Below the pieces are notes generated by a model that searched no databases, was not told the DNA's origin, and saw only the letters and a program-made list of their open reading frames with translations. Shown here piece after piece: positions 3,206 to 4,255 of a DNA stretch of 6,609 nucleotides. The stretch is from contig CAZFVS010000058.1 in NCBI GenBank assembly GCA_964522265.1, positions 1 to 6,609 on the forward strand, given 5' to 3'. How positions within the stretch are numbered: position 1 is the first letter of the stretch; each line of letters opens with the position of its first letter. The DNA is from an uncultured Gammaproteobacteria bacterium (GTDB lineage: Bacteria > Patescibacteriota > Microgenomatia > Daviesbacterales > UBA10151). The translations under genes were made by a program, and so were the position numbers.

Positions 3206-4255
3206 CTATGCCGGCAAGTATCCTCTCAAATTGTTTATATCGATCCGGTATGGCCCTCTCTCCCCCTCGACTATTTTTTTGGCAATCTTTCTAACTATAA
3301 CATCTATATTCCTGTTTAAAGACCTTATTCCCCCGTCAAACCCTAACGGGCGCACAATCGCAGGCCATACCTGCTGATCTATTTGAACCATATTACTATC
3401 GATTGCAGATTTATTCAGCGCCTGAGGAAGCAGGTAGTCCCTCCCGATTACAATTTTCTGTTCATCAGAATAGAAGGGCATTTCTAAAATCTCCATCCTG
3501 TCTATAACTGCTGTTGCGATATTACCGGTGTTGTTGGCTGTAGCTACAAATAACACCTGCGACAGGTCAAAAGGGAAACCGATATAATGATCTAAAAAAG
3601 CTACATTCTGTTCCGGATCCAAAAGTTCTACTAAAACCCCCATAATATCGTTTCTCGCCTCTTCTGTGACTCTGTCCAACTCATCAAGCAAAATAACCGG
3701 ATTTTTTACGCCAGCCCTTTTTAAGGACTTCATAATCAGGCCCGGTTCAGCCTCAGCTTTGATCCTGGATTCACCCCTCAGTTGTAATGCACTTCCTAAA
3801 CCTCCAAATGGGATCCTGATAATGGGCCTCCCTAAACTTTCAGCGATAGAAAATGCCAGAGAGGTTTTGCCTGAACCTACCAAACCGACAAAACCCAAAA
3901 TCGGTTCTTTGGCTATCTGATTTTTTTGTCTATTTAAGATAAGTACTGACAGATATTCAAGTATCCTCTCTTTAACCTGTTCCAGACCAAAATGGTTTTT
4001 ATCTAAGATCTGTTTCGCTCTTTGCAGATCAAGTATGTCTTCTCCACTCCTTGCCCAAGGCAAACCGGATACAAAGTTAATATAAGAGACAACCTTATCT
4101 GTTTCAGGACTGTATTGATTTGCCTTCAGGCTGATTGAAATATGCGTCAACTCATCTGTGAGCCTCTCTAATATATCCTTAGGGAGCCTCGCAGCCAGTA
4201 TTGTCTGATGGAGTTTTTCAACTAAATCTGTACTGTTACTTTTGGCAGCATCCAT
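3206..4255 (-). CDS. Stand-alone Lon-type AAA+ ATPase module (no Lon N-terminal domain, no S16 protease domain)
   Basis: 349-aa ORF with an ATG start and AAGGA 11 nt upstream. It is collinear with roughly E. coli Lon residues 245-590.

- LPKDILERLTDEL matches the end of the long helix.
- Lon-specific motifs: LPWARS, NHFGLEQVKERILEYLSV, and the signature LLDPEQNVAFLDHY.
- ATPase motifs: Walker A GLVGSGKTS (3863..3886), Walker B ILLDELD (3677..3694), sensor-1 VATANN, Arg finger IDRMEIL and sensor-2 GGIRSLNRN.

The ORF stops (TAG 3208..3206) where the Lon protease domain would begin. Confidence 0.85.
   Translation of the reverse strand: MDAAKSNSTDLVEKLHQTILAARLPKDILERLTDELTHISISLKANQYSPETDKVVSYINFVSGLPWARSGEDILDLQRAKQILDKNHFGLEQVKERILEYLSVLILNRQKNQIAKEPILGFVGLVGSGKTSLAFSIAESLGRPIIRIPFGGLGSALQLRGESRIKAEAEPGLIMKSLKRAGVKNPVILLDELDRVTEEARNDIMGVLVELLDPEQNVAFLDHYIGFPFDLSQVLFVATANNTGNIATAVIDRMEILEMPFYSDEQKIVIGRDYLLPQALNKSAIDSNMVQIDQQVWPAIVRPLGFDGGIRSLNRNIDVIVRKIAKKIVEGERGPYRIDINNLRGYLPA

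Follow-up and report, generated by a model that had tools for sequence, protein, structure and literature searches.

The window analysed here is the whole of the 6,609-bp contig CAZFVS010000058.1, part of a metagenome-assembled genome (MAG), on which all genes lie on the minus strand and are closely spaced (Table 1). Between the genes for a small membrane protein and for RNase J it carries a gene for a 349-residue protein, and this protein is a free-standing LonA AAA+ module, which extends from the three-helix bundle at the C-terminal end of the LonA HI(CC) region (approximately EcLon residue 247) to just before the point at which the S16 peptidase domain of a LonA protease would start. The gene opens with an ATG codon, preceded at about 10 nt by an AAGGA Shine-Dalgarno-like motif, and closes with TAG. 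An earlier reading of the window from its letters alone (hereafter the original prediction) had proposed that the product is the ATPase module of Lon, encoded by itself and not by a broken lon gene, and that it is an active ATPase uncoupled from proteolysis.

Table 1. Genes of the 6,609-bp window and features of the 349-residue ATPase, with positions on the contig.
Feature	Position	Strand	Remarks
Stand-alone LonA-type AAA+ ATPase gene, 349 aa	3206..4255	-	Stop codon 3206-3208; Pfam AAA and Lon_lid only
N-terminal three-helix bundle, residues 2-63	4067..4252	-	AlphaFold2 helices H2-21, H26-44, H50-63; equivalent to helices α8-α10 of LonA HI(CC); aligns to EcLon 247-310 and BsLon
Walker A GLVGSGKT, G124-T131 (Lys130)	3863..3886	-	G124, G127, G129, K130 and T131 invariant in the family
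Pore-loop-1 region RGESRIKAEAEPG	3740..3778	-	Lys166 where LonA has Tyr (MtaLonA Tyr397)
Walker B ILLDELD (D191, E192)	3674..3694	-	Invariant in the family
Pore-loop-2 region RVTEEARNDIMG	3638..3673	-	Ala200 at the residue before RGDP
Sensor-1 Asn241 (EcLonA Asn473)	3533..3535	-	Invariant in the family
Arginine finger Arg253 (EcLonA Arg484)	3497..3499	-	Invariant in the family
Sensor-2 Arg311 (EcLonA Arg542)	3323..3325	-	Invariant; inside the family-specific motif RPLGFDGGIRSL
α-helical lid (Lon_lid)	3209..3466	-	Protein ends here; LonA goes on into linker and S16 domain
pnp (PNPase)	4877..6609	-	Cut by the window end, no stop in frame up to 6609; Pfam PNPase, RNase_PH, KH, S1
205-aa protein, N-terminal membrane helix	4263..4880	-	Start overlaps the pnp stop
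rnj (RNase J)	1480..3204	-	Pfam Lactamase_B, RNase_J_b_CASP, RMMBL, RNase_J_C
ftsK, 5' part	1..1393	-	Cut by the window end; Pfam FtsK_4TM, FtsK_alpha, FtsK_SpoIIIE

The assignment to Lon is well supported at the level of motifs and profiles. The protein has both of the Lon signatures on which the original prediction relied (HFGLEQVKERILEYL, residue 88; LLDPEQNVAF, residue 211). Pfam matches are confined to AAA at residues 122-256 (E 3.5e-15) and Lon_lid (PF22667) at residues 284-332 (E 1.5e-7), and the score of 57.1 bits against PF00004 (AAA), well above the cutoff of 21.2, places the protein in the AAA+ superfamily. In the NCBIfam model TIGR00763 (“lon”), residues 5-331 align to model positions 248-567 of 795, so that the proposed match to the Lon ATPase module and to nothing else holds. 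The scores against the full-length models fall far below what is demanded of a Lon equivalog (312.7 bits against a cutoff of 608.05 for TIGR00763, and 244.1 against 891 for PRK10787). The best sequence matches in the PDB are LonA and LONP1 chains, with BsLon 3M6A at E 1e-70; residues 13-347 align to 247-578 of the 793-residue MtaLonA, and the laboratory fragment EcLon(235-584), deposited as 6N2I, covers the whole protein (E 3e-67).

The predicted structure agrees with the sequence comparison. An AlphaFold2 model built from 67 family sequences (pLDDT 92.9, pTM 0.85) consists of a three-helix bundle, an α/β domain and a lid, and Foldseek searches of the PDB with this model return LONP1 and LonA chains first, with a TM score to 6N2I of 0.88 normalised to the query and 0.90 to the target. 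Of the LonA N-terminal portion only the C-terminal three-helix bundle of HI(CC), whose helices have been described (PMC6722904), is kept, and the long coiled-coil helix is absent. The original prediction had placed the start of the protein in the helix that follows the Lon N-domain; the protein does begin in the HI(CC) region, and the wording was approximate in that its first residues belong to helix one of the bundle, past the long coiled-coil. At its other end the protein stops with the lid, a few residues before the S16 Ser-Lys domain would start, as had been proposed. A six-frame Pfam scan of positions 2900-5000 at E<=1 gave no match to Lon_C (PF05362) or to LON_substr_bdg (PF02190), which leaves no trace of a protease domain or an N domain in any frame around the gene.

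The nucleotide site, by comparison, is that of a complete LonA-type AAA+ module, with the Walker A and B spacing, sensor-1, arginine finger, sensor-2 and Lon lid all in place. The claim that these elements look intact can be put more strongly, since they are invariant across the family (Table 1). Lys130 and Asp191 lie 61 residues apart, with 60 residues between them, exactly as do K362 and D423 of EcLonA, where the corresponding value in LonBA is 82 (motif numbering and spacings from PMC9569914). Beyond the canonical elements, W297 and the RPLGFDGGIRSL motif around sensor-2 are also invariant. All residues needed for the nucleotide site are thus kept, and to judge from these motifs it is plausible that the protein binds and hydrolyzes ATP, i.e., that it is an active ATPase.

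It is in the two pore loops, which the original prediction overlooked, that the module itself has been rewritten. In canonical LonA, pore-loop-1 is nearly invariant as RGHRRTY(I/V)GA(M/L)PG, and the close family has the equally conserved RGESR(V/I)K.EAEPG in its place; the protein here carries RGESRIKAEAEPG in place of RGHRRTYVGAMPG in pore-loop-1, and EEARND in place of SD(W/F/M)RGD in pore-loop-2. Two residues of these loops in MtaLonA, Tyr397 and Trp431, touch the translocating substrate and are needed for degradation (PMC8503904). Where MtaLonA has Trp431, BsLon a Phe and EcLon a Met directly before RGDP, the residue here is Ala200. Across 84 loci of the family, pore-loop-1 reads LRG(Q/E)S(R/K)x(R/H/K/S/T)(P/A/S)(D/E)AEPG, such that the Tyr position is taken by Arg, His, Lys, Ser or Thr in relatives, and the aromatic or hydrophobic position of pore-loop-2 is taken by Ala, Ser or Gly. 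The remodelled pore loop also contains the conserved acidic residues E162, E168 and E170. The clade has therefore given up the N domain and the protease, and most of its members the threading residues too, with the ATP site kept. Because both of the loops that grip substrate are remodelled, it is not safe to read the protein as a Lon-like unfoldase minus its protease, even if an active ATPase uncoupled from proteolysis remains plausible from the motifs.

The closest known relatives are the LonA proteins (E. coli Lon, BsLonA, MtaLonA and human LONP1), to which the protein is approximately 40% identical over about 335 residues; common to both are the bundle of three helices, the AAA+ α/β domain and the lid, as well as the spacing between the Walker A Lys and the Walker B Asp, the motif positions and the Lon-specific motifs LPW, HxGLxxxKxRIxE and LDPEQN. 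Compared to LonA, the protein has no LAN/PUA-like N domain, no long coiled-coil helix and no S16 domain; its Walker A has the form GL(V/A)G(S/T)GKT, where LonA has GPPGVGKT, and RPLGFDGGIRSL stands in place of YTREAGVRxLER. The truncated construct EcLon(235-584) has nearly identical domain boundaries, with the natural protein aligning to positions 8-339 of the 344-residue construct, but 6N2I is an artificial truncation with canonical pore loops, whereas the protein described here is natural, under selection and has remodelled pore loops.

Other Lon types also depart from the canonical LonA plan, among them LonC (e.g., M. taiwanensis LonC), LonB and LonBA (PMC3391209, PMC13069640, PMC9569914). 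We considered membership in each of these and found that it does not fit. LonC is the mirror image of the present protein, in that it keeps the protease and has lost ATPase activity, where here it is the ATPase that has intact motifs and the protease that is missing. In LonB and LonBA a membrane anchor, inserted in the AAA+ module or preceding it, goes together with a long insertion in pore-loop-1 and a retained S16 domain; the protein here contains no transmembrane segment and no insertion, and Lon_C is missing. The protein should be kept out of the Lon protease category, since it lacks the S16 domain, the N domain and the pore-loop residues and falls below the equivalog cutoff. An origin in a defence system or a phage was likewise considered and rejected, with only weak, generic AAA matches, of which those in PADLOC are partial (DolB, IetA, TRIP13 etc.; best E 7e-6, 23 bits). 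The neighbourhood of the ATPase gene is made up of housekeeping genes and not of defence genes.

Outside the Lon family, ATPases of protease lineages are known in non-degradative roles, for example ClpX in organisms that have no ClpP (yeast Mcx1) and the chloroplast FtsHi proteins. These are conceptual analogues in other AAA+ families: ClpX is naturally a separate polypeptide, and FtsHi keeps an inactive protease domain, unlike the present case, in which the protease domain is gone altogether and the pore loops have changed.

We then ask how widely this architecture is distributed. Among 5.8 billion proteins searched there were more than 6000 matches, of which the 120 best are 64-78% identical to the protein, 314-391 residues long (all but one at least 342 residues) and carry AAA and Lon_lid only. 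They are annotated by NCBI as “AAA family ATPase” (Candidatus Daviesbacteria, Patescibacteria group) and by JGI as “ATP-dependent Lon protease”. When each GTDB species, represented by one genome, was scanned with two family motifs, at least 462 matches in these species-representative genomes were confirmed; they encode a protein of about 345 residues, and all of the identifiable ones are Patescibacteria. The best 80 matches are Microgenomates, comprising Daviesbacteria, Gottesmanbacteria, Roizmanbacteria, Woesebacteria, Amesbacteria, Shapirobacteria and Curtissbacteria. A second homologue search, started from a 38%-identical member, extends the clade to Dojkabacteria and Nomurabacteria, with proteins of 342-507 residues that again match AAA and Lon_lid only. 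The architecture is thus that of a large patescibacterial clade and not a peculiarity of this contig. Many of the species-representative MAGs with this gene and its synteny have titles such as “uncultured Gammaproteobacteria”, “Pseudomonadales” or “Bathyarchaeia archaeon” (L008, L009, L015-L017, L063 and others), which look like placeholders or mislabelling.

The boundaries of the protein are as constant as its motifs. In 84 of 84 loci the open reading frame ends 218-226 residues after the Walker A Lys, and tblastn searches within ±10 kb of the gene at these loci detected no similarity to Lon_C or to the Lon N-domain. Hundreds of independent assemblies share these boundaries, some of them with contigs of 0.6-1.2 Mb. 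In comparison with five orthologues, the proportion of synonymous differences (pS) is 0.76-0.86, which is saturated, and that of nonsynonymous differences (pN) is only 0.13-0.24, so that the ATPase gene is under strong purifying selection.

An exhaustive HMMER search of 1.84 billion representatives at 50% identity found further short, protease-less forms, and a neighbour-joining tree built on the AAA regions places every protease-less 50%-cluster representative in one clade apart from canonical LonA. Since they form a single clade, the protease-less forms would appear to stem from one ancient event. Taken together, we consider it probable that the gene is a genuine, vertically inherited and stand-alone descendant of the LonA module across the Patescibacteria, also known as the candidate phyla radiation (CPR). 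The extensions of some of the longer members (P0139, P0165, P0167, P0136) were considered as degenerate protease or LAN domains and rejected as such; they are low-complexity tails rich in Q/P or in S/N. The highest scores in the exhaustive HMMER search belong to a separate group of proteins of approximately 1000-1700 residues (P0121, P0122, P0124 and others), and the three large proteins scanned with Pfam, one of them from Candidatus Dependentiae, have their Lon-type AAA module in two or three tandem copies, with one Lon_C behind them.

We found no curated family for this architecture and, in the literature beyond subscription journals, no paper describing it or treating Lon in CPR bacteria, which agrees with the original prediction, where it was not recognised as a characterised family. 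A Patescibacteria-wide LonA derivative without protease and without N domain, and with rewritten pore loops, is an undescribed variant. Classification schemes assume that ATPase and protease stand in one chain, with all Lons containing both domains (PMC9569914), and this ancient and strongly conserved clade has kept the motor only. That it has done so with rewritten pore loops shows that the Lon ATPase module can come under selection for a job in which no protease is fed.

The gene order around the ATPase gene gives some indication of what this job may be. Where the flanking sequence suffices, 51 of 66 loci have pnp on the same strand no more than 5 kb upstream, 57 of 72 have rnj downstream, and 44 of 59 have the two together; the gap between the ATPase gene and rnj is often 0-30 nt, or the two genes overlap. 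On annotated contigs the order is nusA-infB-rpsO-pnp-(205-aa gene)-ATPase-rnj-ftsK, and the succession of pnp, ATPase and rnj is kept in members that are only 38-45% identical. Contigs labelled as Nomurabacteria or Dojkabacteria have dnaJ...nusA-infB-rpsO-pnp-ATPase-UDG-...-rnj, where UDG denotes uracil-DNA glycosylase, with ftsK following rnj in the Nomurabacteria contig only. A different arrangement is found at 15 Roizmanbacteria-type loci, from which the ATPase gene has gone from the pnp-rnj block, and in 14 of these 15 it stands divergently beside groES-groEL.

With this in mind, and judging from sequence and gene order, the most likely function is that of an ATP-hydrolyzing, non-proteolytic remodeller or regulator derived from Lon. 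Of the LonA module it has kept the bundle, the RecA-like α/β domain, the lid and all ATP residues. Lost are three features to which Lon owes its being a protease, namely the N-terminal domain that binds substrate, the S16 Ser-Lys peptidase domain and, in the pore loops, the aromatic residues with which polypeptides are gripped and threaded. The module would assemble into a LonA-like ring or spiral, and its ATP hydrolysis would drive the remodelling, holding or regulating of partner proteins or ribonucleoproteins, with no feeding of a proteolytic chamber and without canonical threading of a polypeptide. In most lineages its gene would share a transcript with those of PNPase and RNase J, and in Roizmanbacteria it stands beside groES-groEL. 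From the gene order, RNA-decay or ribosome-associated complexes are the leading candidates for its clients, and proteostasis is the second candidate, from the groESL and dnaJ neighbourhoods. A precedent for the assembly comes from crystals of the EcLon(235-584) fragment, which is packed there into an open helical hexamer (PMC6722904).

Several observations weigh against this interpretation in one respect or another. A few distant members of the clade keep a Phe or Tyr near the pore-loop-1 site (P0139 with SRYF, P0143 with SRFF and P0154 with SKAF), and for this reason the loss of threading may not be valid for the whole clade. The protein is mildly acidic (pI ~5.8, net charge ~-4) and has no charge signature of nucleic-acid binding. 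The order nusA-infB-rpsO-pnp ... ftsK may be frozen synteny and not a functional link; at some loci rnj is absent or distant, as at L085, where the order is looser and four unrelated genes stand between pnp and the ATPase gene, and one Dojkabacteria copy, with a disordered tail, lies in an unrelated context. It is also important to consider the assembly itself. The P and N domains contribute to the stability of the LonA hexamer, and a module without both of them may need a partner to assemble. That the N-terminal region takes part in Lon oligomerization has been stated previously (PMC6722904).

A more specific possibility, which we hold tentatively and think rather unlikely as it stands, is that the ATPase is an accessory motor of RNA decay, a partner of PNPase and/or RNase J that forms the ATP-consuming component of a CPR-type degradosome and that strips proteins from RNA, acts on the Arg/Gly tail of PNPase or gates the nucleases. 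In most loci the gene stands directly behind pnp and ahead of rnj, in many with the short gaps or overlaps to rnj noted above, which speaks for such a partnership, as does the survival of this order in Dojkabacteria and Nomurabacteria members at ~40% identity; the PNPases often have a basic, RGG-rich tail, and the pore loop has its conserved acidic residues. The relocation of the gene in Roizmanbacteria, away from both pnp and rnj, is difficult to reconcile with it, as are the four intervening genes and the missing rnj at L085, the UDG gene that intervenes in other lineages and the overall acidity of the protein. Fusions point the same way, in that relatives show none with RNA-binding modules and their extensions are low-complexity tails only. 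Carried to its full extent, the proposal would be that the patescibacterial Lon turned long ago into a non-proteolytic AAA+ “degradosome motor”, the sole protein of the Lon lineage in these cells and a partner of PNPase and RNase J, whose acidic, tyrosine-less pore loops might engage RGG tails or strip proteins from RNA; in this complete form we regard it as doubtful.

Slightly less probable again is a split Lon, in which the AAA+ ring would dock on a peptidase, S16 (Lon_C) or another, that has a gene of its own, and perhaps on a separate N-domain protein as well, so that Lon function would be retained in trans. Two-component AAA+ proteases are common (ClpXP and HslUV are of this type), and the intact ATPase motifs would suit such a machine. 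One would expect the threading residues to be kept in a functional protease motor, however, and both pore loops are without them; the protein ends 0-8 residues past the lid, with no docking tail comparable to the IGF loop of ClpX; and no separate Lon_C or Lon N-domain similarity was detected within the ±10 kb surveyed around the gene at the 84 loci or in any frame of positions 2900-5000, where the 205-aa protein encoded upstream is not a cryptic LAN or P domain either (see below). A normal lon that has become a pseudogene, or that looks broken through a sequencing frameshift or an assembly artefact, errors that are possible in principle on a short MAG contig of 6609 bp, is so improbable that it can be set aside, given the six-frame scan without a Lon_C or LAN signal, the tightly packed flanking genes that leave no room, the boundaries shared by hundreds of assemblies with long contigs among them, and the strong purifying selection on a gene with conserved motifs of its own.

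The interpretation as a non-proteolytic remodeller or regulator has consequences beyond this locus. The clade offers a natural system for asking what the Lon ATPase does alone, and bears on the debated chaperone-like, protease-independent roles of Lon. In CPR bacteria the protein may be a housekeeping part of their reduced machinery for proteostasis or RNA decay, and the names now attached to it say too little (“AAA family ATPase”) or are wrong (“ATP-dependent Lon protease”).

The remaining genes of the window, in which Rfam and tRNA scans found no RNA family and no tRNA, deserve some comment. The start of rnj is ambiguous (3190-3208). The original prediction had it begin 1 nt after the ATPase stop; a TTG codon is indeed present there and gives an RNase J of 574 residues, the length of the orthologue at locus L001, and an ATG at 3192, 12 nt further on and so 13 nt after the stop, is the other candidate. 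No clear Shine-Dalgarno motif precedes either of these candidate starts, and for that reason translational coupling of rnj to the ATPase gene seems possible.

The gene for the 205-aa protein between pnp and the ATPase gene is found in Daviesbacteria-type genomes only, and occupies the same position at L004 (9301-9921), L005, L006, L008 and L010; the protein is 31-37% identical to its same-position counterparts in the L004-L010 loci. It has no match in Pfam, NCBIfam, PHROGs or PADLOC, a word-index homologue search returned nothing but the protein itself, and its single-sequence AlphaFold2 model, with a pLDDT of 45, is too poor to be of use. We considered it as a cryptic Lon N or P domain and rejected this, as an HHalign comparison of a 6-sequence profile of the protein to 66-sequence Lon N and Lon C profiles gave probabilities of 1.7% (N) and 0.3% (C/P), in agreement with the original prediction that the upstream gene encodes an unrelated membrane protein.

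The Roizmanbacteria-type loci mentioned above are L056 (7909-11526), L044, L047, L057, L058, L060, L067, L069, L070, L075, L078, L079 and L081-L083. At most of them the ATPase gene is convergent with a gene for an RNase H-like protein (PF04308), and no CIRCE-type operator was seen, on reading by eye, between groES and the ATPase gene at L056. The UDG gene (PF03167) directly follows the ATPase gene in all three of three contigs (L088 at 9137-9748, L089 at 9217-9873 and L090 at 9029-9556), and dnaJ is found within 8 kb of the ATPase gene in members of the Nomurabacteria and Dojkabacteria type.

The PNPase encoded in the window ends in a disordered C-terminal tail of ~90 residues (4880-5152, minus strand), which is rich in Arg and Gly and contains RGG and RGGF repeats. 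Tails of at least 25 residues with at least 40% G+R occur in the PNPases of 22 of 62 related loci (L001, L004, L006, L007, L015, L021, L024, L026, L049, L077 and others). To our knowledge, Arg/Gly-rich tails are unusual for a bacterial PNPase, and those seen here resemble RNA-binding or condensate-forming tails.

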